Assembly: GCA_963775895.1 (NCBI GenBank)
Contig: CAVZKL010000005.1
Coordinates: 1 to 37,045, forward strand
Direction: 5' to 3'
Source: Candidatus Bathyarchaeota archaeon
GTDB taxonomy: Archaea > Thermoproteota > Bathyarchaeia > Bathyarchaeales > Bathycorpusculaceae
Length of the DNA stretch: 37,045 nt
Both the position numbers and the translations under genes were made by a program. Below the pieces are notes generated by a model. That model was given only the letters and a program-made list of their open reading frames with translations. It searched no databases and had not been told where the DNA came from. Within the stretch, counting starts at the first letter, position 1, and each line of letters begins with the position of its first letter. Shown here piece by piece: positions 6,417 through 23,194 of this stretch.

Positions 6417-6821
6417 TTGATTGAAACGATAGATCACGTCGGAATTGCAGTGAAAAACTTGGATGAAGCAATCGCTCTCTACCGAGACGTCTTGGGTTTC
6501 AGGCTTGAAGGAGTTTACACGCTGAATGAGCGCAAGATCAAACTGGCATCCTTCAGAGGCGGCAACGAAACCCACGTTGAGCTTGTACAACCCCTGAGCG
6601 ACGACAGCACGGTTGCAAAGTTTCTTGAAACTCGAGGCGAAGGTATCCACCACATCGCCGTGAAGGTCAAGGACGTCAAAGCCGTGCTTGGAGAGTACAA
6701 ACGGAAGGGTCTCGCCCTGATTGACGAAGAACCGAAACCAGGCGCTGGAGGTTCAAGAGTAGCTTTTGTTCATCCGAAGAGCACTCGCGGCGTCCTTCTG
6801 GAACTTGTCGAAAGACCATAA
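6417..6821 (+). CDS. mce: Methylmalonyl-CoA epimerase
   Basis: VOC fold with metal ligands IDHVGIAV, ELVQP, GEGIHHIA, FVHPKSTRGVLLELVE; consistent gene context. Confidence 0.93.
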   Translation: MIETIDHVGIAVKNLDEAIALYRDVLGFRLEGVYTLNERKIKLASFRGGNETHVELVQPLSDDSTVAKFLETRGEGIHHIAVKVKDVKAVLGEYKRKGLALIDEEPKPGAGGSRVAFVHPKSTRGVLLELVERP

Positions 6822-6892
6822 GCCCAGTCGACGCGTTGTCCACATGTTCTAAATATCTGCAATAGTTATAGACAAATCGTGAGTGAAGAAAT

Positions 6893-8458
6893 ATGGGCTC
6901 AAAAGAGTCGACGGTAGATGACAAAATCAAGCGCTTGAAAGAGTTAAACGAAGAGGCTAAGCTCGGCGGAGGAAAGAAACGGATCGATGAACAGCATAAA
7001 AAAGGCAAATTGACGGCTCGAGAACGCATCGAACTCTTGCTTGATCAAGGCAGCTTCAACGAACTGGACCGGTTCGTGGTTCACCAGTGCACGGACTTCG
7101 GCATGGCGGACAAGAAGACACTCGGCGATGGCGTCGTCACGGGTTACGGCACGATTGACGGTCGCTTGGTCTACGTGTTTTCCCAGGACTTCACGGTTTT
7201 CGGCGGCTCTCTAGGCGAAATGTTCGCGAAGAAAGTTTGCAAGATCATGGACCTTGCCGTGAAGGCAGGTGCGCCAGTAATAGGCTTGAACGACAGCGGC
7301 GGTGCGCGAATACAGGAAGGCGTAGCGAGCCTGGCAGGTTATGGAGACATCTTCTTCAGGAACGTCACAAGCTCGGGTGTGGTGCCTCAAATCTCAGCGG
7401 TCTTGGGACCGTGCGCGGGTGGAGCCGTGTATTCGCCGGCTCTTACTGATTTCATAATTATGGTGGACAAGACGAGTCACATGTTCATCACGGGCCCAGA
7501 CGTCGTCAAGACCGTTCTGGGACAGGAAGTTGATTTCGAGGAATTGGGCGGTGCGATGGTTCATGGCACGACGAGCGGTGTAATTCATTTCATAGCCAAG
7601 GACGAACAGAACTGCATGCAGATAATCAAGAAACTGCTGAGTTTCCTGCCCAGCAACTACCTAGAAGATCCACCTGTTGTCGAGACCGGTGACGACCCAA
7701 ACCGTACTGACCAGACTCTGGTAAAGATCTTGCCCGACGATCCTGACAAGCCCTACGACGTGAAGGAGGTCATCCACCGCATCGTTGACAAAGATGATTT
7801 CTTCGAGGTTCAACCTCTCTGGGCACAAAACATAGTAGTAGGTTTCGCCCGTTTGAACGGCAAAACTGTCGGAATCGTTGCCAACCAGCCTGCATATTAC
7901 TCAGGAGCCTTGGACATCAACAGCTCCATGAAAGCGGCAAGGTTCGTGCGTTTCTGTGACGCCTTCAACATTCCGATAGTCACTTTTGTCGACGTACCAG
8001 GTTTCCTCCCAGGCATTGAGCAAGAGCACGGCGGCATAATCAAACACGGCTCAAAACTTCTGTACGCTTACTGCGAAGCAACCGTGCCCAAAATCACCGT
8101 GATTTTGAGAAAAGACTACGGCGGAGCGTACGACGTTATGGGCTCTAAGCACAGCGGAGCTGACATAAACTACGCGTGGCCCACGGCTGAAATTGCAGTG
8201 ATGGGACCCCACGGAGCGATAAACATCATCTTCAGAAAAGAAATAGCCGAAGCAAAGGATCCGAAACAGAAACACAGCGAATTGGTCACTGAATACCGCC
8301 AAAAGTTTGCGAGCCCTTACATAGCGGCACAGAAGGGTTACATCGATGAAGTCATCGAGCCAGCTGAAACCCGTCCCAAACTCATAAGCGCCTTAGAAAG
8401 TTTGGCCACAAAACGTGAAATCAGACCTTCGAGAAAACATTCGAACCTCCCGTTGTAG
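6893..8458 (+). CDS. Methylmalonyl-/propionyl-CoA carboxyltransferase (PccB/MmdA/transcarboxylase 12S type)
   Basis: [49 protein letters not shown] and a C-terminal KHSNLPL; 521 aa. Confidence 0.93.
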
Positions 8459-8585
8459 CGGAACAAGCGAGTGGAAGACGAAGCGGCACGTACTCAAAGG
8501 ACCACTCAAGATGATAATAGATTAATAGACCTTCACCTCAATTTTCAAGTTCCCAGACTCGGAGCATTGCTAAGAGCAGGTCAGG

Positions 8586-10131
8586 TTGGCTTTGAAACAC
8601 GTCAAGATAACAGACACCACCTTCAGGGATGCACATCAGAGTCTGATCGCCACGAGAATGCGAACTGACACGATGCTTCCCATTGCAGAGAAGATGGATC
8701 AAGTTGGCTTTTTTTCGCTAGAAGCATGGGGAGGCGCCACATTCGACGTAGCGATACGCTACCTCGCAGAAGATCCATGGGAACGGATTCGCCAACTGAA
8801 AAAACACGTCAAGAACACACCGCTCCAGATGCTCCTGCGCGGTCAGAACGTCGTCGGTTACCGCAATTACCCTGACGATGTGGTTGAGAAGTTCATAGAG
8901 AAAGCCGCTGAGAACGGAATAGACATCTTCCGAGTCTTCGACGCTTTGAACGACGTAAGAAACATGGAAGTCGCCATAAAGACCGTGAAGAAAAACGGCA
9001 GACATGCTCAAGGCACGATCAGCTACACCATCAGCCCCTTTCACACTGTCGAGTATTTCGTGAAATTCGCCATGAAGCTGGCCGAGCTCGACTGCGATTC
9101 AATATGCGTAAAAGACATGGCTGGCATGCTGGCGCCACAGCCCGCGTTCGAGCTTATATCCGCTCTAAAAAAGAAAGTTGGCCTGCCCGTCCATCTGCAC
9201 AGCCACAGCACGAGCGGGATGGCCATGATGACTTACTTTCACGCCTGCGAAGCCGGTGTGGACATTTTGGACACTGCGTTCTCACCGTTGGCGTGGGGTA
9301 CGTCGCAGCCTCCTGTCGAGTCGGTCGTTGCGGCTTTGAAGGGAACGCCCTACGACACATGCTTGGACAGTGAATTGCTCAACGAAATCGCGCAGTACTT
9401 CCGTGAACTGCGTGAGAAGTATTACGACCCCTTGAGGTTGGTGGACCCGAAGTCCGAGCGAGTTGATCCGTCAATAATCGTGCATCAGATTCCAGGCGGT
9501 ATGTTTTCAAACCTGTTGGAACAGCTGAGGGAGCAGAAAGCGTCGGACAAGCTCGGTGAAGTGCTTGAAGAAGTGCCCAAAGTGAGAAAAGAACTGGGTT
9601 ATCCGCCTCTCGTCACACCGACCAGCCAGCTTGTGGGTATTCAAGCGGTTCTGAACGTCATCTCAGGAAAAAGGTACAGCATCGTGCCCAAGGAGATCAA
9701 GGACTACGTGAAAGGGTTGTACGGAAGACCACCCGCACCCATCGATGAGAAGATTAGGAAGAAGATCATAGGCGACGAGGAACCGATCACGTGTCGCCCC
9801 GCTGACTTGCTTGAGCCGATGCTTGACAAGATTCCAGACGATGTGAAGCCTTACATTGAATCCGATGAAGATCGACTCACTTACGTGCTGTTTCCACAGA
9901 CGGCACTGGAATTCTTCAAGAAGAGAAAGATCAACCGCCAAGATATCAACGCTGGTATTTCGCCTGAAAGACTTGCGGAACTTGAAGAAGCCGCAGCCCT
10001 TTCGATGGCAGTAGTGAACTACTTGCAGAATCAGTCATCCGTCAAGGCGCTCACCCTGTCGAAGAGGAAAGACAGAATCGTCTTACTGGGTCTTAGCGGC
10101 TCGTCAAAACCAAGTTGAACGTGGTGCCTGA
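8586..10131 (+). CDS. Pyruvate/oxaloacetate carboxyltransferase (PycB/OadA/transcarboxylase 5S type) with no biotinyl domain and a C-terminal docking tail
   Basis: DTTFRDAHQSL, EAWGGATFD, MLLRGQN, CVKDMAG, HLHSH, HQIPGGM and GYPPLVTPTSQ. The as-read stop is at 10118. Removing one A near 10068-10070 gives ...KRKTESSYWVLAARQNQVERGA* ending at 10131, 2 nt before the next ATG. Confidence 0.9.
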
Positions 10132-10133
10132 AC

Positions 10134-10688
10134 ATGCCAGAGTACGAGGTCTTCGTCGACGGAAAGAACAGAAAAGTGGAACTTACCAGAAACGCAGAAA
10201 ACTCCTTCACTGCCAAGATCGACGGCAAAGAGCACGCGCTCGGCATTGACACTGATTCTTTGAATGTTGAAAACCCTTTCACTGTGAGAATAGACAACAA
10301 ATCCTACCACATCGAACTGCCCAGAGCAGACAGGACAAGAGAATTTTCAGTGAAGGTGGATGAAGCCGTCTTCAAAGCTGAGATAAGAACTCCTACCAGA
10401 AAGAGCACGTTCACGACCTTTGAGCCCGCAACAACTGCAACGTCAAGAAGAGCGACTAGGAACAGGCAAGTCATGGAAGGAAGTGTTACAGCTCCCATGA
10501 CCGGCAAGGTGGTGCGGGTGAAAGTGAAAGAGGGAGAGCAGGTGAAGACGGGTCAAGTCCTGTGCGTCGTTGAGGCGATGAAGATGGAAAACGAAATCGT
10601 TGCACCTAAAACGGGCACGGTCAAGGAAGTATGCGTAGCAGAAGGTTCGTCAGTGAGCGAAGGCGAGCCTCTTGTCACGATCGGCTAG
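10134..10688 (+). CDS. Biotin carboxyl carrier protein with extended N-terminal beta-hairpin domain
   Basis: APMTGKV...[10 protein letters not shown] biotinylation motif and a Thr/Arg-rich linker. Confidence 0.93.
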
Positions 10689-12364
10689 AAAAGTGTCAGC
10701 GGCTTGTACTCGCCGAAGACTGCTCTGAGCGTGTCGCATATTTCACCCAACGTTGCGTATTCTTTCACGGCTTGAAGTATGAAGGGCATCAGACTTTCGT
10801 TTTCTTTTGCTGCTGCGTCGTGCAATTTTTCGAGGGCTTCTTTGGTCTTGGCTTGGTCTCTCTTCTTCTTTATCATGTTTAACTGATCGACAAGAGTCTT
10901 CTCCACTATTGGGTCCACCTTCAAGGTTTTGATCGGAGTCTTTTCTTCGCTGACGTAATCGTTTACGCCTACGATGACGTGTTTCTTTGCTTCGACCTCT
11001 CTCTGGAAACGGTAGGAGCTTTCGATTATCTCGCGCTGCATGAAGCCTTTCTCTATGGCGGCAACTGCTCCGCCCCTTTCGTCGATTTGTTCAATGTACT
11101 TGAGGGCTTTCTCCTCAATTTCGTTTGTTAAGTATTCAACGTAGTATGATCCGGCCATTGGGTCCACGCTGTCGATGGTACCGCTTTCGTAGGCTATGAT
11201 TTGCTGAGTTCTCAGGGCCACTGTTACGGCTTGTTCCGTTGGCAGGGCGTAGGCTTCATCGAAAGAGTTCGTGTGCAGAGATTGAGTTCCGCCGAGAACA
11301 GCCGATAGGGCCTGCAATGCCACGCGGACAATGTTGTTGTACGGTTGCTGAGCCGTGAGCGAGACTCCCGATGTTTGGGTGTGGAATCGCAGCATCTGCG
11401 AGTTGGGGTTCTTGGCTTTGAACCTGTCACGCATGATTTTGGCCCAGAGTCTGCGAGCAGCCCTGAACTTGCCGATCTCTTCGAAGAAGTTGTTGTGAGC
11501 TGCGAAGAAGAAGGACAGTCTGCCCGCGAACCTATCAACGTCGAGGCCACTGTCAATCGCTGCTTGCACGTAGGCAATCGCGTTTGCCAGAGTGAAGGCC
11601 ACTTCTTGCACCGCTGTTGAACCGGCTTCGCGTATGTGGTAGCCACTTATGCTTATCGTGTTCCACTGCGGCATGTTCTTGCTGCAGTAGGTGAAGACGT
11701 CTGTTATCATGCGCATAGAGGGTTTCGGCGGAAAAATGTACATGCCTCGGGCCACGTATTCCTTCAGAACATCGTTCTGAACAGTTCCGCCCAAACGAGA
11801 CTGATCGACGCCTTGCTTCTGTCCCACAGCAACGTACATGCTCAGTAGGACGTTTGCGGGAGCGTTAATCGTCATGGAAGTCGTGACTTTTTCAAGCGGA
11901 ATCCCGTCGAACAGGACTTCCATGTCCTTGAGAGTGCTTGCGCTGACCCCGACCTTTCCAACTTCGCCGAGAGCCAAGGGATGGTCGCAGTCGTATCCGA
12001 CCTGAGTGGGAAAATCGAAGGCCACGCTCAAACCGGTCTGCCCGTGTTCGAGCAGATACTTGAAACGTTTGTTGGTTTGTTCAGCGGTTCCGAAGCCGGC
12101 GTACTGACGCATCGTCCAAGGACGCGCGCGGTACATGGTGGGGTAGACGCCTCGTGTGAACGGGTATTCGCCCGGGAAACCGAGATGATTCAGGTAGTCA
12201 AAACCCGAGACTTCAACAGGAGTGTAAAGTCTCTCTACAGGGATGTACGAGCTGGTGGAAAACTCTCCCTTCTCGGGCAGCTTGTCGAAGCTTCTTGCAA
12301 CGGTGCCGGCTTCCCACTTCTGCTTCTGATCTCGTATCTCTCGCAGTTTTTGTTCGTCAAACAT
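10685..12364 (-). CDS. mcmA: Methylmalonyl-CoA mutase, substrate-binding (large) subunit, 559 aa
   Basis: The start is re-called at ATG12364 ([10 protein letters not shown]); the upstream 150 codons of the track ORF overlap another gene. Motifs [35 protein letters not shown] and [11 protein letters not shown]. The Tyr and Arg specificity residues are those of MCM, not isobutyryl-CoA mutase. No B12-binding DxHxxG domain. Confidence 0.92.
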
Positions 12365-12516: not shown

Positions 12517-13140
12517 TCACTGTTGAGTCGGGGGCGGCGCGGGCGTTTGCTGCGGAGGTTGTGAAGGTATCTGGAAGAAGGCGATCGCCAGTAGCAACAT
12601 AGCAATCCATATCAGTGCTAAACCGATAATGATTATCGTCAGAAAGGCGCCTATCAGGAACAGTAAGCCCGCCGTCGCGAACAAGTGGACAGTCGTTTTC
12701 TGAGAGAGTCCGTTCAAGGATCTTCTTAGGAAAAAGGCTGAGACCACGATGAACACGACGAACAACACGAAGCTCAGAAGAATCTGTGCCACGTACGGCG
12801 CTACCGTATCCCAAGTTACGTTCGTCATGATTTGCTGGGCATTGCTCAGATTGCTCAAATCGATACCCAAAGCTTTGAGCAGATTCAACGCTGCTACGAC
12901 AACTAGCACGGCTGTAATCACTCCGCCGATGATGGTGATCACGAGCGAGTAGAGCGCATTGTTGAATATGCGTGAGTCTTTGTAATAATCCGAAAATCCT
13001 TTCAACCCAATGAAGAGGAGTATTACGCCTATGAGGTCAATTATCCAACCGTAGATACCTGCAAAAAAAGGTACCAGAGTACCTACGACCAACAGTATGG
13101 CTCCGATTCCGCCCATGTTCTTGCTCGATTCAAATGTCAT
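12517..13140 (-). CDS. DUF996-like multi-pass membrane protein
   Basis: K..GGIGAILL start, [19 protein letters not shown] and [21 protein letters not shown] pattern, with a Pro/Gln tail. Confidence 0.75.
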
Positions 13141-13213
13141 TTTCCATTTCCTCGCAGAACGATTTTTGGGCTTCTCGGATAAAAAACTTTCCTATCCGCG
13201 CCCTTTCGGCTGC

Positions 13214-14293
13214 TCAGCCTTGCGTTCTTGCCCAAATCCTGCAGGTTCCTTCGACGCTCACCATGCAGGCGCCGACCGGTCTTTCTGGAGTGCAGGTTTT
13301 CATGAACAGGGGGCATCCTGTCGGTCTTATTTTGCCCACCACGACTAGGTGGCACATGCAGCCGTGTTGCACGTCGACGCCTCTTTCGATTCTTACTCCG
13401 TGCTTCAAGTGAGCGTCGTACGCCGAGTACTGTTTTTCAAGCAAAAACTTTGACGCGGGTATGATGCCTAAGCCGCGCCACGCACCGTCGACCGTGGAAA
13501 ACACTTGGCTCATGAGTTCTTGTGCCTTCGTGTTTCCATCGTAGTCAACGGCTCGTACGTACTCGTTTTCCAGTCTTGGTTTTCCTTCCTGTAGCTGTCT
13601 GAGGATCATGTAGATTCCGAACATCAGGTCTAACGGTTCAAACCCAGCGACCACAACGGGCATCCCGTAACGCTCGGGAAAGATTTCGTAAGGCTTGAGC
13701 CCTATGATGGTGCTCACGTGTCCTGGCGCTATGAAACCGTTCAGGCTCAGATCCTTCATCTCCACCAGCAGCCTCATCGCCGGCGGGATCGTTCGATGAG
13801 AAACCAGAAAGCTGATGTTCGATGGCGGTTTTCCAGCGATTTCCACCGCCGTCGACGGGGACGTGGTTTCGAAGCCCACGGCGAAAAACACGAATTCTTT
13901 GTGAGGCTCAGCCTTCGCCATGCTCACCGCGTCACCTATGCCGTAGACCACGCGAACGTCAGCGCCTTCGGCTTTGGCTTCCAGCAAAGACATCTTTGAG
14001 CCTGGAACACGGAAGAGGTCTCCGAAGCAAGTTATGACGATTCCTTTGAGACCCAGTTGGACGGCTTCGTCTATCTCCGAAGCTGGCACGATGCACACCG
14101 GGCAGCCTGGACCGGCTATCACCTCCACGTTTTGCGGCAACAGGCTTCGCAGGCCATAGTGATTTATGGTCCATTCGTGTGTGCCGCAGACGTGACAAAT
14201 CTTGACCGTGCCTTTTTTCGGTGCGGCTTCCAGCATCTTTGCTGCTAGGCGTTTCATCAGATTTGGATCTCTGAACCTCAGACTCTCAGTCAT
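13214..14293 (-). CDS. hypD: [NiFe]-hydrogenase maturation protein HypD
   Basis: CGTH, GPGCPVC, GFETT, PGHVS and a C-terminal Fe-S Cys cluster ending GACMVSVEGTC. Confidence 0.95.
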   Translation of the reverse strand: MTESLRFRDPNLMKRLAAKMLEAAPKKGTVKICHVCGTHEWTINHYGLRSLLPQNVEVIAGPGCPVCIVPASEIDEAVQLGLKGIVITCFGDLFRVPGSKMSLLEAKAEGADVRVVYGIGDAVSMAKAEPHKEFVFFAVGFETTSPSTAVEIAGKPPSNISFLVSHRTIPPAMRLLVEMKDLSLNGFIAPGHVSTIIGLKPYEIFPERYGMPVVVAGFEPLDLMFGIYMILRQLQEGKPRLENEYVRAVDYDGNTKAQELMSQVFSTVDGAWRGLGIIPASKFLLEKQYSAYDAHLKHGVRIERGVDVQHGCMCHLVVVGKIRPTGCPLFMKTCTPERPVGACMVSVEGTCRIWARTQG

Positions 14294-14596: not shown

Positions 14597-16886
14597 TCAG
14601 AGTTTGAAAAAGCCCGATGCCACTGCCTGACCGAAGGATAAGCCACCGTCACCCGGGGGAACAGTCTCATGCACCAAGAACCGGATGTTGGCATCCTCAA
14701 CGATTCTCCGCATCTCGCCGGTCAGAAGTTCGTTGCATGCCACTCCACCCGTAAAACCGATCGCCTCAACCCTGTTTTCCTCTGCACTTTGCAACGCAAG
14801 CTTCGCCAACCCTTTGGCGAGGTAGATGTGTGCCGAATAAGCCAAGTCTCGTTTTCTGCACTTGGTTCTTTTCTCGAAAATCTCCTGCAGCAGGGGAGTC
14901 GTTTCAAGGGTGTTACCATTGATTATCGGTTCCAGTTTCGGAACATTTTTTCCTCCTGTTGCCGCTGACTCAAGTTTCATTGAAGGCTCGCCTTCGTAGG
15001 TGCGTTCGTGGCACACGCCGAGAATAGCTGACACAGCGTCGAGGACTCTTCCGCAGCTCGTGGTCTTCGTGACGTTGCCGCGGTTCCTGAGTTGTTGAAG
15101 GATTATCTCGATTTCTTTTTCTCCGTGGGGGAAGTGCCGCTTGTTTTCCTGGAGAAACTCTTCAACGTCCACTTTGCCGTAGAGTATTCCTGCAGCTACT
15201 CTTAATGGATAACGAGTTGCCAAGTCTCCGCCCACTAGTGGCTGTTCTTCAAGGTGGGCTAAACGTTTGAAGCCGCGGTTGTTCTTTGTTGCAGAGGAGG
15301 ATTTCTCCTCCCCAGGCTTCACCGTCCAATCCGTATCCGTAGCCGTCGCAGCATACGCCGATGATTTCGTTGACGCTGTGTTCTTCCATCAAGGCGGTGA
15401 CGTGGGCGTGGTGATGCTGGATTTGCTGAAGTTGCCAGTTGTTTTCCTCGGCCAGTTGGTGCGCCAGCGCCGTCGTGGTGAATTTCGGATGCAGGTCACA
15501 CGCGACCGTGTCTATTCGGCTGTTCGTCAGGCCGACTAAATGTTTTGAGGCTGTTTCGAGGAAATCTCTTGTTTCTATGTTTTCTACGTCTCCTATGTGC
15601 TGTGAGATGAAGGCTTTGTCGCCGTTCAGTATGCACGCAGTGTTGTTCAGTTCTCCGCCTAGGGCGAGAATGCAGTGTTTTGCGTGATGTTTGAGCAGTA
15701 CAGGAGCTGGCGCGTAGCCTCTTGATCGTCTGATGAAAACGGTGTGTTCGCCGTGAGTGCGGAGTACCGAGTCGTCGCATCTGTGGGCTATTCGACGGTC
15801 ATGGAACAGGAAGTAATCAACGGTGCTGCCGAGGGTTTTGAGAGCTTCATCGTTGTCGTTTATTATTGGCTGGTTCGGTGGGTTGGCGCTCGTCATCACG
15901 AACGAGGCGTCGGTGACCTTGTCGAAGAGCATGTAATGCAGGCCTGTGTAGGGCAGCATGACGCCGATGTTGTGCAGTAGCGGTGCCACGAGAGCCGACA
16001 GGTAGTAATCACTCTTCTTGTTCAGCAAGACAATTGGGCGGGTGAAGGAGGTTAGTAGTTTTTCCTCTTCTTCGCTCACTTCGGCGAATGTTCTGGTTGC
16101 CTCCAAGCTTCGGGCCATTATCGCGAAGGGTTTTTGACTTCGGTGTTTGACTTCTCGGAGTTTGGCTAGCGGCTTGTCCTTGGTCGTTGATGTTGCAACG
16201 TGGAAACCGCCGTAGCCTTTTATTGCCAGCGTGCTGCCTTCCGACAGGAGTCGGCCTGCTTCGCGGACGGGGTCTTTGTGCCGTACCGCTTCTCCGTTGG
16301 CTGTTGTGAGGTACACTTTTGGCCCGCACTTGGGACAGGCTACTGTTTGGGCGTGAAATCTTCTGTTGAGTGGGTCTCTGTACTCTTTCAAACAGTAGCC
16401 GCACATGGGAAATTCGCGCATGGTCGTGTTTTCACGATCGTAGGGCAGTTTTTCGATTATCGTGAATCGTGGGCCACAGTTTGTGCAGGTGATGAAGAAG
16501 TAGTCGAATCTTGGGTCTTCGGGGTTTCGAAGTTCTCTCAGACACTCGTCGCATATCGCCACGTCTGGCGGTATGACCGAGCCTGAGAGTTCGGTTTCGC
16601 TTGAACTCTTTTCTACGGTGAAACTTCGATATTGGTTTTTTCCTTCGAGCTTCGAAGTGATTACGTCGTAGATTTGGGCAAGAGGCGGCTTCTTTCCTCG
16701 AAGATCTTTCATGAAGTCTTGAATGTCCTGTTCTTTTCCTTCAAGAAGAATTTCTACTCCGGCATCGCCTCGGTTCTTGACGTATCCGTTCAGTCGGTGC
16801 TGGACTGCGGTGCGGTAGATGAAGGGACGGAAGCCCACCCCTTGAACTATGCCGGTAACCTTGACTTTTAGCCGCACTGCAGCCAT
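14597..16886 (-). CDS. hypF: Carbamoyltransferase HypF, split by one frameshift (~15285)
   Basis: GIVQGVGFRPF acylphosphatase domain, CxxC zinc fingers, QHHHAH and DGYGYG..WGGE. The second frame supplies TTSCGRVLDA, GGVACN and PPGDGGLSFGQA. Confidence 0.93.
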
Positions 16887-19532: not shown

Positions 19533-19586
19533 ATGCTTTATAAACGGCTTCATTGTCTACGTAGTAAACGTGGAAATCTGAGGTGG
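19533..19586 (+). promoter_or_regulatory. TATA box and SD for tes
   Basis: TTTATAAA at 19537-19544; GAGGTGG at 19580-19586 before ATG19593. Confidence 0.55.
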
Positions 19587-19592
19587 AAGGCT

Positions 19593-21122
19593 ATGTTGAA
19601 GACTCAGGTTCAAGAAAAGTTTGAGACTCACTCGACCAGTCTCTGCCCCGAATGCTTGCAGAGAATTCCTATGAGGATTTACGAGGAAGACGGCGTTATC
19701 TACTTGGAGAAGACTTGTCCGGAGCATGGAAAGTTTGAGGACATATACTGGGGAGACGCCGAACTTTTCAGATGGTTCTACGACAACTGGTACAATGCCA
19801 AGTACTGGGGCAACGGCCTGGAGAAACCGCATTCCAAGACCGTCAAGGGTTGCCCCTTCGATTGTGGCGTGTGTCCACAGCACAAGACCCCCACGATTCT
19901 GGGGATCATCGATGTCACGAACAGGTGCAACATGGCTTGCCCAGTCTGTTTTGCCTACGTGGGAGCAACCAACTACGTTTACGAACCCACGTACGACCAG
20001 ATCGTTGAAATGATCAGAGTATTACGGTCCAACAGTCCGTGGGCGTGCAACGCCCTGCAGTTCAGCGGGGGAGAACCCACCTTAAGGAACGATCTGCCTG
20101 ATCTGATAAAGGAAGCGACGAAGGCGGGGATAACTCATGTGGAAGTCAACACCAACGGTATCCGCGTCTCTGAAGACCTCGACTATTTCAAGAAACTGCT
20201 TGACGCCGGTCTAAGCACGCTTTACCTTCAGTTCGACGGTTTGAGAGAAGAGATTTACAAGAAAACCCGCGCGCGCGGAGACATGATTCCGATCAAGATG
20301 AAGGTTCTGGAAAACGCAAGAAAACTCGGGTTGCATTCCATCGTTCTCGTGGTCACCTACGCTAAAGGAGTGAACGACAAGGACATCGGGGAGATCATCG
20401 ATTTTGCCGTGAAGAATCATGATGTCGTGCGCTGCGTTAACATTCAGCCGGTCTCTATGGCGGGAAAGGCGCGGAAAGAGGAAATGCGCAAGATGAGAAT
20501 AACGATTCCTGACACGATCAACGAGATTGAGAAACAGACGAACGGTGCGGTCGGACGTTTCGACTGGCGCCCCGTCAATTGGCCCGTTCCGATTTCAAAG
20601 GGCATGGGCCAGGTTAAGGGCAGGGTTTATCCAGAGTTTACCATGCATCCCATGTGCGGTGCAGCGACTTTTCTGGTCGTCGACAAGGATGGTTCTTACA
20701 AGCCGATCATGAACTACGTGGACGTTGACAAGTTTGCGAACGTGTTCTGGGACGTATACTATACGGGTGCCAAGGGCAAGAAGACAATGGCCAAGATAAA
20801 GATGGTGAAGCTCCTGCCCATGGCGAACAACGACTTCGTGCGAAGCTTGATCACTGGCGTCGTTACAAAAGGAAGCTACAAAGCGCTCGGGGAACTGATG
20901 CGTCGAATCGTCATGGTCGGCATAATGCACTTTCAGGACGTCTGGAACATTGACCTTGACAGGGTTCAGAAGTGCGCGATCCACTACGTCACACCTGACG
21001 GAAAGGTCCGATGCTTCTGCACCTACAATAGCATCCACAGGCCCGAAGTTGAGAAGCAATTCGCCGTGTCAATTCCAGAGTGGACGAAGAAGACTGGAAA
21101 GAAAATCAACGAACCGTTCTGA
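19593..21122 (+). CDS. tes: Tetraether lipid synthase (GDGT/macrocyclic archaeol synthase, MJ0619-type radical SAM)
   Basis: Rubredoxin-like CPEC...CPEH; auxiliary cluster GCPFDCGVCPQH; radical SAM CNMACPVC; SGGEPT; C-terminal cluster ligands HPMCG...MHFQD...KCAIHY...FCTYN. Confidence 0.88.
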   Translation: MLKTQVQEKFETHSTSLCPECLQRIPMRIYEEDGVIYLEKTCPEHGKFEDIYWGDAELFRWFYDNWYNAKYWGNGLEKPHSKTVKGCPFDCGVCPQHKTPTILGIIDVTNRCNMACPVCFAYVGATNYVYEPTYDQIVEMIRVLRSNSPWACNALQFSGGEPTLRNDLPDLIKEATKAGITHVEVNTNGIRVSEDLDYFKKLLDAGLSTLYLQFDGLREEIYKKTRARGDMIPIKMKVLENARKLGLHSIVLVVTYAKGVNDKDIGEIIDFAVKNHDVVRCVNIQPVSMAGKARKEEMRKMRITIPDTINEIEKQTNGAVGRFDWRPVNWPVPISKGMGQVKGRVYPEFTMHPMCGAATFLVVDKDGSYKPIMNYVDVDKFANVFWDVYYTGAKGKKTMAKIKMVKLLPMANNDFVRSLITGVVTKGSYKALGELMRRIVMVGIMHFQDVWNIDLDRVQKCAIHYVTPDGKVRCFCTYNSIHRPEVEKQFAVSIPEWTKKTGKKINEPF

Positions 21123-21236: not shown

Positions 21237-23045
21237 TTAGGCTTGCTGGGCTTTTTTCCTTTCTTCTTCTTGCAGGACTCTTCTGAGCACCTTGCCCACC
21301 AGCGTCATTGGCAGTTCTGTCCTGAATTCGATTTCTCTGATGGCTTTGTAGGGCGCTAGTTTGCTGTTGACGAATTGCTTGATTTCTTCTGCCGTTGCGG
21401 TTTTTCCCTCTTTGAGCACAACGAAGGCTTTGGGAATCTCGCTTGCCACGGGGTCGGGTTTGCCCACGACTGCGCAGAGTTTCACGGCTGGGTGTTCATA
21501 AATGACATCCTCGATTTCTCTCGGGTAGACGCTGTAACCTTTGTACTTGATCAAGTCTTTCTTGCGGTCCGTTATGTAGAAGTAACCGTCTTCATCCATT
21601 TTTCCGATGTCCCCAGTGTAGAGCCAACCGCCGCGAAGCACGTCCCTTGAATCTTCAGGCATCTTCCAGTAGCCCTTCATCACCTGAGGCCCCTTGACCA
21701 CGAGTTCGCCGGTTTCGCCTGGAGGCAGTTCAGTGTTTCCTGTTTCCATGTCCATTATCTTGGCATCCGTGTCAGGCCAGGGCAGGCCTATGGAGCCGAT
21801 TTTCACGGTTTTTAAAGACTTGTCCAGCGGGTTGCAGTGAGTGACCGGTGAGGATTCTGTGAGTCCATACCCCTCCACGAGCACGCCGCCCGTTGCCTTC
21901 ATCCATTTCTTTTGGATTTCCGGCGGCAACGGTGCCGACCCTGAGATGCAGAAGCGTACTGATTTCAAGTTGTATTTTCCACAATCTGGGCTGTTCAGCA
22001 GGTACGAGTACATGGTAGGTGCTCCGCAGAAAACGGTCGCGTGGTGTTTCTGTATAGCCTCGAAAGTGCTTTTTGCATCAAACCCGCGCTTGCTCCCCGG
22101 GAGCGTAATCATTTTTCCAGCCAGATAGATTGGCGCGTTCATTCCCGTGGTCATGCCGTAAATGTGGAAGAGCGGCAGAACCGTCAGGAAGGTTTCCACG
22201 CCCTTTGTTCCCTTCAGCCATTCCGCGCATGCGACCGCGTTTGAGACCAAGTTCATGTGAGTCAGCATCGCACCTTTGGCCAGTCCGGTTGTGCCGCCCG
22301 TGTACTGAAGTGCTACCAGATCTTCTCGTGGGTTGATGCTGACTTCGGGCGGATTGGCCTCGTACTTGTTGAGCAGTTCTTGATAGAAATGGATGTTCGA
22401 TGCGCGTTCAACTTTATGAGAAGGAATCCTGCCAAGGAGAGATCCTAGAAAAGCTATCGTTGAGGGCATGTATTCTTTCAAGCTGGTTACGATTATGTTT
22501 TTCACTTTGGTTTTCGGCAAGACCTTTTCCAGAACTGGATAAAGCGCATCCATCACGACGATGGTTTCGGCTTCGCGAGTCGTTTAGTTGGTGTTCAACT
22601 CTCACGTTCTTTGTAGAGCGGGCTGATAGCGGTCACGATGCGCGCCCATTTTTATTGCGCCGTAGTAAGAGATCACGAATTGAGGAATGTTAGGTAGGAA
22701 GAGCGCGACCTTGTCGCCTTGTTTGACGCCTAAGTCCCACAAGTGCCGTTGCAAACTTGTCCGAGAGACGGTCCAGTTCTCTTGTACGTCATCGTCTTGT
22801 CGAAATAGACTATGGAAACGTGGTCTGGATACTCCTTGGCTGTTCTTCTGAGTAATTCAAAGAGTGGAACTTCGGGGTAGTCAATGTGTCTAGGAACCCC
22901 TTCGGGCCAGAACTTGTACCATGGTTTTTCCTTCGGCGCAGGTGCAGGCTGTATTTTGGCTGGTTCCTCTTTTGCCGGCTCCTTTCCAGGTTTCCTCTGG
23001 GGCGGGAGCAGGCTGCGCTCTAACCTTCCTTTTCCTGACAGACAC
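21237..23045 (-). CDS. fadD: Long-chain acyl-CoA synthetase (AMP-forming), N-terminal part broken by several frameshifts
   Basis: QYTGGTTGLAKG, VEGYGLTE, TGDIG, DRKKD and terminal GK motifs. Upstream frames supply KPWYKFWP..VP..IDYP, GVKQGDKVALFLPNIPQF and ISPLYKERE. Confidence 0.85.
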
Positions 23046-23194
23046 GAGCATCCCTTCTGTTCAGTATAGACGATCGAAGAGGTAATAACATTTTTCCAAA
23101 GAGCATGAATCGTTTTCGGCTCGCGTTCGTAAGACGAGTGACTGAAATTGATTAAAGTAGTGCTTATAAGTGATGTCGTTGACATTGATTTTCA

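Follow-up and report, generated by a model that had tools for sequence, protein, structure and literature searches.

We report a gene cluster from a Candidatus Bathyarchaeota archaeon which probably encodes a biotin-dependent, ATP-independent methylmalonyl-CoA:pyruvate carboxytransferase (transcarboxylase). The cluster occupies positions 6417 to 12364 of a stretch of 37,045 nucleotides, hereafter the window, and also comprises an epimerase and a B12-dependent mutase which would link the enzyme to succinyl-CoA. The predicted reaction, oxaloacetate + propionyl-CoA <-> pyruvate + (S)-methylmalonyl-CoA, would shuttle carboxyl groups within a succinate-propionate route of the Wood-Werkman type, whose remaining enzymes are encoded elsewhere in the genome. 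An ATP-free carboxyl transfer between methylmalonyl-CoA and pyruvate had been proposed in the initial annotation of this DNA, and it is supported in silico: none of 11 genus genomes gave a match for the partner modules, the pathway genes occur in 5 of 5, and synteny is kept among relatives. If true, widespread archaea of sediment, soil and peat couple the succinate-propionate route to pyruvate/oxaloacetate at no ATP cost, and models of their energy yield, fermentation products or propionate/amino-acid turnover change.

The cluster and its missing partners

The window is contig C5 of an assembly (G000) of 1.77 Mb in 28 contigs with a completeness of 88.8%. Five genes form the cluster:

6417..6821, + strand: methylmalonyl-CoA epimerase (134 aa; TIGR03081 equivalog, 151 bits, cut-off 115; Glyoxalase_4 fold)
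6893..8458, + strand: 12S/PccB-type acyl-CoA carboxyltransferase (521 aa; Carboxyl_trans PF01039, 691 bits)
8586..10118, + strand: 5S/PycB/OadA-type keto-acid carboxyltransferase (510 aa as assembled; HMGL-like and PYC_OADA domains, no biotinyl domain)
10134..10688, + strand: free biotin carboxyl carrier protein (184 aa; Biotin_lipoyl PF00364, 85 bits, residues 118-183)
10685..12364, - strand: methylmalonyl-CoA mutase, large (substrate-binding) subunit (559 aa; PF01642, 763 bits; TIGR00641, 818 bits)

The tandem of epimerase, 521-aa transferase, keto-acid transferase and carrier lies where the initial annotation had placed it, and family scans agree with the assignments. The keto-acid transferase indeed has no biotinyl domain, its length being 510 rather than about 515 aa. 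The carrier and mutase genes are convergent and their tails share the four nucleotides that had been described (10685-10688). The mutase start, the ATG at 12364, was read directly from the letters; an alternative open reading frame (ORF) of 709 aa runs into the adjoining DUF996 gene.

Two carboxyltransferases and one carrier are present, and nothing that would charge or discharge that carrier. Biotin carboxylase and OadB had been noted as absent from the window, and neither occurs there or in the whole 1.77-Mb assembly. A wider search of genome and relatives with hidden Markov models had been suggested; it was run with PF02785 (the C-terminal domain of biotin carboxylase) and PF03977 (OAD_beta, OadB/MmdB) on 11 genomes of the genus, the window's own included, and on 14 control genomes. 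The 10 other genus genomes are 63-98% complete and one of them (G001) is a single contig, 97% complete. PF02785 matched in 0 of 11 genus genomes and in 13 of 14 controls; PF03977 matched in 0 of 11 and in 2 of 14. The simultaneous absence of biotin carboxylase and of a decarboxylase beta subunit, which marks a Propionibacterium-type enzyme, is thus what is found in the genus at a completeness of 63-98%. The hallmarks of other biotin enzymes are missing: PycA of the two-subunit pyruvate carboxylases from all 11 genomes, and the beta subunit of Na+-translocating decarboxylases (PF03977) from the same 11 and from all 40 genomes across the class which carry an orthologue of the 5S-type gene. The pair of biotin carboxylase and own carrier beside PccB, typical of an acyl-CoA carboxylase, is absent from window, genome and genus; 12 loci of relatives have it.

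We consider it very unlikely that the two transferases are the carboxyltransferase halves of an ATP-dependent propionyl-CoA carboxylase and a two-subunit pyruvate carboxylase, served by a biotin carboxylase encoded elsewhere, unassembled or too divergent for recognition. A biotin carboxylase does lie in the orthologous cluster of relatives (24 of 40 genomes), the 5S-type protein is closest to the beta subunit of a two-subunit pyruvate carboxylase (5ks8, 541 bits) and the assembly is incomplete. However, the PF02785 search was negative even in the single-contig genome, while nearly all controls responded. A tblastn search of the window's genome with the biotin carboxylase of a family relative, an enzyme with 70-93% identity in the family, gave only two weak matches on contig C10 (19-21% identity, E ~1e-6). 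Furthermore, carboxylase and own carrier are missing pairwise from clusters which are otherwise intact, and a whole clade of such clusters is without the carboxylase (see below).

Each transferase is encoded by one copy in the window's genome. The 12S-type protein finds its best solved relatives in the PccB proteins of T. maritima (736 bits) and S. coelicolor (1xnv_A, 706 bits), followed by 3n6r_B (698 bits), and scores 623 bits against the 12S subunit of Propionibacterium (1on3). The PF01039, PccB and 1on3 scores identify it as the acyl-CoA carboxyltransferase that a Propionibacterium-type enzyme contains, and its relatives and the flanking epimerase and mutase point to specificity for propionyl-/methylmalonyl-CoA. 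The 5S-type protein reaches 791 bits on the PycB domain model NF006761. This model is spread over two genes, positions 2-486 on the 510-aa protein and 459-589 on the carrier; a separate carrier thus takes the place of the biotinyl domain that PycB of two-subunit pyruvate carboxylases bears on the same chain. Among solved structures 5ks8 is followed by OadA (2nx9, 512 bits) and the 5S subunit (1rqb, 458 bits). All 40 aligned 5S-type sequences share D15, K176, H205 and H207, which we take to be the metal ligands of the transferase family (Asp, carbamylated Lys and two His).

Gene order, probable module loss and selection among relatives

Gene order was read in 53 fetched loci, 42 of which come from other genomes and carry a 5S-type orthologue of at least 66% identity. 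The 12S-type gene lies upstream on the same strand in 35 of the 42 and the carrier directly downstream in 39; the three loci without a carrier are short contigs (2.3, 6.0 and 1.8 kb). A convergent mutase is present in 29 and an orthologue of the epimerase in 26. Since the order recurs across these loci, the arrangement is not a matter of chance, and the conservation of synteny that had been put forward as a check is borne out.

A class-wide survey covered 301 Bathyarchaeia genomes with a completeness of at least 85%. Matches to the 5S-type protein were counted at E 1e-100 or better, and at least 67% identity defined an orthologue. The survey detected a 5S-type match in 51 genomes, biotin carboxylase in 58 and OadB in 26. 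The 40 orthologue-bearing genomes include 24 with biotin carboxylase, none with OadB and 16 with neither. In 11 further genomes the best 5S-type match is only 54-65% identical, and eight of these encode OadB, usually adjoining. Such OadB-linked copies are predicted to be genuine decarboxylase alpha subunits (OadA); those adjoining OadB are 54-59% identical and branch apart from the window's group on the 5S tree.

These counts bear on the idea that the cluster encodes an oxaloacetate or methylmalonyl-CoA decarboxylase, which would either conserve no energy or rely on an unrecognised membrane protein in place of OadB/MmdB. The 5S-type protein passes the OadA equivalog model (734 against 718 bits), the best solved relative of the carrier is a decarboxylase gamma chain, and other Bathyarchaeia families put both transferases beside OadB. 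Release of CO2 from carboxybiotin, however, needs the beta subunit, which is missing from genus and orthologue-bearing genomes alike, while the OadB-linked copies are distant and stand on their own branch. In addition, two transferases on one carrier would be needless for a simple decarboxylase. Overall, this explanation is quite unlikely. The loci with both transferases beside OadB, L151 (G066:C2) and L152 (G045:C1), belong to another Bathyarchaeia family and have the order carrier-OadB-12S-5S-carrier with two small carriers; one sodium pump may there serve two carboxyl donors.

Among relatives of the window a longer order recurs: fumarate reductase flavoprotein < biotin carboxylase > second carrier > epimerase > biotin ligase > 12S > 5S > carrier > < mutase. 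The flavoprotein gene thus flanks the transcarboxylase cluster in relatives. Of 13 carboxylase-bearing loci, 12 have the second carrier beside the carboxylase. In the carboxylase-less loci (e.g. L115, L121, L129 and L130) carboxylase and second carrier are gone jointly and the genes for epimerase, BirA, 12S, 5S, carrier and mutase are kept. A tree of 5S-type proteins was built from 54 rows, after removal of three short-contig loci, those lacking the gene, and repeat loci from one and the same genome. It places the window's genus inside a carboxylase-less clade of 16 rows and 7 genera (SH-aLRT 92), which outside the genus includes G013, G100, G193, G252, G285, G293 and G296. Presence and absence of the carboxylase require 10 changes on this tree by parsimony, at least 6 of them forced by starred branches; some of the absences outside the 16-row clade may reflect genome incompleteness. 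As judged from these sequences, the gene set of the window appears to have arisen through loss of the pair of biotin carboxylase and carrier. Genomes with and without the ATP module within one order represent a natural experiment and provide close sequence pairs for module swapping of biotin enzymes on a common core.

Two further loci deserve mention. In L126 (G048:C4:11500-25538, 12684-14035) a biotin carboxylase lies in two overlapping pieces in different frames and adjoins an intact cluster; it may be a decaying gene or an assembly error. In L017 (G001:C1:2090000-2109999), from the single-contig genus genome, an exact tandem second copy of the 5S-type, carrier and mutase genes is found about 6 kb apart. 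The tandem copies score identically and the end of the 12S-type gene is repeated too.

Selection was estimated by the Nei-Gojobori method between the window and genus relatives, with synonymous divergence (dS) above 1 throughout, and the resulting ratios of nonsynonymous to synonymous divergence (dN/dS) are rough. They amount to 0.015-0.031 for the 12S-type gene (7 of 7 genus comparisons), 0.12-0.13 for the epimerase (2 of 2) and 0.11-0.14 for the carrier (5 of 8). The 5S-type gene gave 0.035-0.068 in 3 of 8 comparisons, and dS was saturated in the remaining 5. Although rough, the ratios indicate strong purifying selection on both transferases and the carrier and exclude neutral decay since the divergence of the genus. 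Full-length orthologues occur in 9 of the 10 other genus genomes, intact in 8 and fragmented in G003; none was found in G010, which is 63% complete.

It follows that decaying, functionless remnants of a lost carboxylase system are an extremely improbable explanation for the transferases and carrier. Such remnants might be suspected since the 5S tail and the biotin ligase of G000 each contain a frame change, and a gene for biotin uptake or synthesis was not recognised in searches for BioY and BioB. The dN/dS of 0.015-0.07 for both transferases (at saturated dS), the intact orthologues and the invariant catalytic motifs argue against decay, and frame changes also affect the unrelated hypF, copA and fatty-acid CoA ligase genes, a pattern that suggests assembly errors.

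Carrier, putative docking tail and reading frames

The carrier displays the biotin-lysine motif EAMKME, and EAMKMENE is invariant in 37 of 37 sequences. It is the sole biotinyl protein found in the genome. A search with the Biotin_lipoyl family gave three matches, and the other two were rejected as a second biotin protein: one is the lipoyl E2 acyltransferase on contig C17, with a lipoyl-lysine context and E3-binding and catalytic parts, and the other is GcvH on C9. Both transferases must therefore use the one carrier, a small free protein as in Propionibacterium-type enzymes but with an N-terminal domain unlike that of 1.3S.

An AlphaFold model of the carrier (mean pLDDT 77) places eight strands at residues 3-85 and the biotinyl domain at 117-183, joined by a linker (88-113) that is disordered. 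The eight strands form a barrel of the BT type in which the central helix is absent. In Foldseek, the BT and BCCP part of the PCC and MCC alpha chains comes out on top (7ybu_A, E 1.8e-13, 183 columns), above pyruvate carboxylases. A weak match to the Pfam family PF18140 (PCC_BT) spans positions 33-116 of its 126-position profile; as the match begins at position 33, the carrier is without the start of this domain. For the biotinyl domain, the best solved relative is the gamma chain of P. horikoshii methylmalonyl-CoA decarboxylase (2d5d, 70 bits), and the score against Propionibacterium 1.3S (1dcz) is 55 bits.

The C-terminal tail of the 5S-type protein resembles that of the biotin carboxylases of relatives. 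Two alignments of C-terminal ends, 75 residues each, were made from the fetched loci, one with 34 5S-type proteins and the other with 12 biotin carboxylases; comparison of the two profiles by hhalign gave a probability of 98% (E 2.3e-13, 52 columns). The profile comparison alone is significant, a BLASTP comparison of the window's 5S tail with one biotin carboxylase tail giving E 1.1. Against Pfam at E up to 1 the window's 5S tail is unmatched, and neither PF26062 nor PCC_BT is found on 5S or biotin carboxylase tails; the biotin carboxylase tail has a weak ACC_epsilon match below cut-off (E 0.031). The 5S tail of a genus relative was modelled as a helix of 26 residues, whose most confident blocks (model residues 21-40) have pLDDT 87-93; a short Ser-x-Trp segment, which is conserved, comes after the helix.

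According to these models, the BT domain appears to be split, with its helix on the 5S-type tail and its barrel on the carrier. Because the carrier matches the BT and BCCP part and the tails are homologous, the 5S-type protein and carrier together resemble the alpha chain of propionyl-CoA carboxylase with an exchanged enzyme. In the mechanism we propose, the PccB-type protein would be the core, and 5S-type protein and carrier would mimic the alpha chain with a pyruvate carboxyltransferase in place of biotin carboxylase. The helix of the 5S-type tail would fill the BT-type barrel of the carrier, the reconstituted domain would dock on the core, and biotin would swing between the two active sites.

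A broader version of this scheme is possible, though we give it somewhat less than an even chance. The PccB-type core would accept two interchangeable alpha-like modules with the same split BT domain, each formed by a tail helix of the enzyme and the barrel of its own carrier. The ATP-driven module would be biotin carboxylase with the second carrier and the ATP-free module the pyruvate carboxyltransferase with the first. In Bathyarchaeia with both modules, a single core would serve as a hybrid of carboxylase and transcarboxylase, some families would add a sodium pump subunit instead, and the window's clade would have been pruned to a pure transcarboxylase. If true, this modular core is a biotin-enzyme build unlike the Propionibacterium enzyme and an independent route to transcarboxylation.

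In the window, the 5S-type ORF ends at 10118 and its last 15 residues are out of frame and resemble no relative. The conserved C-terminus (Ser-x-Trp ... Arg-Gln) is found in the +1 frame with a stop at 10129-10131, 2 nucleotides before the ATG of the carrier. This frame change and that of the biotin ligase gene are probably assembly indels, suspected because unrelated conserved genes (hypF, copA, a fatty-acid CoA ligase and E2) are split as well; a genuine loss of the tail end in the window's strain is possible but less likely. The split genes of the window, all on the - strand, are the following:

306-2471, - strand: CopA-type P-type ATPase in two ORFs, 1071-2471 and 306-812
14597-16886, - strand: hypF in two overlapping ORFs, 15249-16886 (545 aa) and 14597-15322 (241 aa)
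21237-23185, - strand: long-chain fatty-acid CoA ligase in two ORFs, 22730-23185 and 21237-22556

For hypF the frame change is deduced from its HypF_C_2 domain, which is divided between the two ORFs. The E2 gene on contig C17 is also split in this assembly. Among neighbouring genes, hypD (13214-14293) adjoins the split hypF, and a tetraether lipid synthase Tes, in keeping with an archaeal host, is encoded at 19533-21122 on the + strand (NF045702, 600 bits, cut-off 450).

Pathway setting and known systems

Pathway genes were searched in five genus genomes (G000, G001, G002, G005 and G008). Succinyl-CoA synthetase, the B12-binding subunit of the mutase with MeaB, and biotin ligase each occur in 5 of 5, as do class I fumarase, malate dehydrogenase, malic enzyme and ADP-forming acyl-CoA synthetase. 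A flavoprotein of succinate dehydrogenase/fumarate reductase (TfrAB type) is likewise present in all five; the copy on contig C23 has an iron-sulfur/CCG subunit as partner, for which TfrB is the best model though below cut-off. The B12 subunit, malate dehydrogenase, fumarase and fumarate reductase, which the initial annotation had singled out to be looked for, are accordingly all there. Archaeal and bacterial phosphoenolpyruvate carboxylase and the GTP- and ATP-dependent phosphoenolpyruvate carboxykinases were found in 0 of 5. With malic enzyme in 5 of 5, the notion that the 5S/12S enzyme is the only C3-C4 link was ruled out.

By these assignments, the full route from oxaloacetate via malate, fumarate, succinate, succinyl-CoA and methylmalonyl-CoA to propionyl-CoA is predicted to be encoded. 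Of its possible directions, we lean towards propionate formation, or ATP-free entry of propionyl-CoA into succinyl-CoA, over syntrophic propionate oxidation. At the locus on contig C23 (L106, G000:C23, 9030-15360) the genes of the TfrAB-like fumarate reductase are immediately followed downstream by those of a tungsten-type aldehyde:ferredoxin oxidoreductase and a polyferredoxin.

The mutase of the window bears Tyr (RQYAGF) and Arg at two substrate positions, and a paralogue on contig C16 has Phe and Gln. We take these positions to bind the substrate carboxylate in methylmalonyl-CoA mutase, and Phe/Gln to indicate isobutyryl-CoA mutase. The large subunit of the paralogue (L109, G000:C16:47000-66000, 7452-10513) is 60% identical and forms an operon with a B12-binding small subunit and MeaB; a thiolase-like gene lies near this operon.

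The same residues help to judge whether the enzyme is a transcarboxylase for other substrates, such as malonyl-/acetyl-CoA, or 2-oxoglutarate or another 2-oxo acid. Some relatives of PycB are known as carboxylases of 2-oxoglutarate, malonyl-CoA is the presumed substrate of protist transcarboxylases, and the substrate assignment here draws on homology and neighbours only. Against this, epimerase and mutase accompany the cluster in most loci (26 and 29 of 42), the window's mutase has the Tyr/Arg signature, and among characterised proteins the CoA-side enzyme comes closest to the beta subunits of propionyl-CoA carboxylase. Other substrates are therefore unlikely.

Several observations weigh against a methylmalonyl-CoA:pyruvate transcarboxylase. 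The support for this function is genomic, and pyruvate is presumed to be the keto-acid substrate by homology. The assembly to which the window belongs reaches only 88.8% completeness. Biotin carboxylase accompanies these genes in 24 of the 40 related genomes, where they fit ordinary propionyl-CoA and pyruvate carboxylase roles; transcarboxylation thus need not be the ancestral job. The assembled docking tail of the 5S-type protein loses its final conserved residues through the frame change, and the biotin ligase gene on contig C14 is also broken by one. BioY was found in 0 of 5 genus genomes and BioB above cut-off in 0 of 5, though biotin ligase and a biotin enzyme are retained. One mutase B12-binding subunit was found in each of G000, G001 and G002, and that of G000 adjoins the isobutyryl-CoA-mutase-like paralogue, not the window's mutase.

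Model scores also point away from it. The 12S-type protein reaches 860 bits on TIGR01117 (mmdA), under the cut-off of 999. The 5S-type protein passes the OadA equivalog NF008985 (734 bits, cut-off 718) and stays below the 5S equivalog NF008984 (563 bits, cut-off 827), for which reason automatic annotation will mislabel it. The likely automatic names for the cluster's enzymes, oxaloacetate decarboxylase, pyruvate carboxylase B and propionyl-CoA carboxylase, would wrongly imply ATP-driven CO2 fixation or a sodium pump.

The initial annotation knew of no characterised archaeal example of a transcarboxylase. Nor did our search of the literature find one; the idea itself had already been put forward for Asgard archaea (Imachi et al. 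2020, PMC7015854, as far as its accessible text goes), and an archaeal transcarboxylase is for this reason not new in kind. That paper lists methylmalonyl-CoA transcarboxylase-associated genes among the conserved propionate-fermentation genes of Asgard archaea. Its list of such fermentation genes names the flavoprotein of succinate dehydrogenase, a biotin ligase associated with transcarboxylase, and the biotin carrier. Lombard and Moreira (2011, PMC3199775) left transcarboxylases aside when they surveyed the biotin enzymes of archaea, and among the papers searched we found none tying Bathyarchaeota/Bathyarchaeia to transcarboxylase. What is new here, as read from the genomes, is a Bathyarchaeia case where a clade of several genera visibly has the ATP module taken out of an otherwise conserved cluster. 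The Asgard and Bathyarchaeia cases are alike in being genomic inferences known from genes, and in Bathyarchaeia relatives the cluster has these three types of gene at its flanks. They differ in phylum, and the present case adds the presence or absence of the ATP module in 301 genomes, selection and tail homology.

Among enzymes with known structures, the 5S-type protein matches the two-subunit pyruvate carboxylase PycA/PycB (5ks8) and OadA (2nx9) best in sequence, and the biotinyl domain the P. horikoshii gamma chain (2d5d). In contrast to PycA/PycB and the Na+ decarboxylases, PycA and OadB/MmdB are missing from the 11 genus genomes and the biotinyl domain is separate instead of fused. Propionyl-CoA carboxylase, an alpha6beta6 complex (3n6r, 7ybu, 6ybp), shares the PccB-type core (698-706 bits) and the BT and BCCP fold of the carrier; here, however, the biotin carboxylase domain or gene is absent.

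The transcarboxylase of Propionibacterium freudenreichii subsp. shermanii (EC 2.1.3.1; 1on3, 1rqb, 1dcz) is homologous in all three components (623, 458 and 55 bits). The initial annotation had recognised its 12S/5S/1.3S layout in the window; this holds for the two transferases and one carrier, whereas the 5S-type protein is nearer to PycB/OadA and the module resembles a split PycB or PCC alpha. The 1.3S subunit of Propionibacterium has a short N-terminal assembly peptide. The archaeal carrier differs from 1.3S in its 184 aa with an eight-stranded BT-type barrel, and the keto-acid transferase differs in its helix-containing tail, shared with the biotin carboxylase of relatives. Common to the archaeal and the Propionibacterium systems are the lack of an ATP module and of a pump and the setting in a succinate-propionate pathway.

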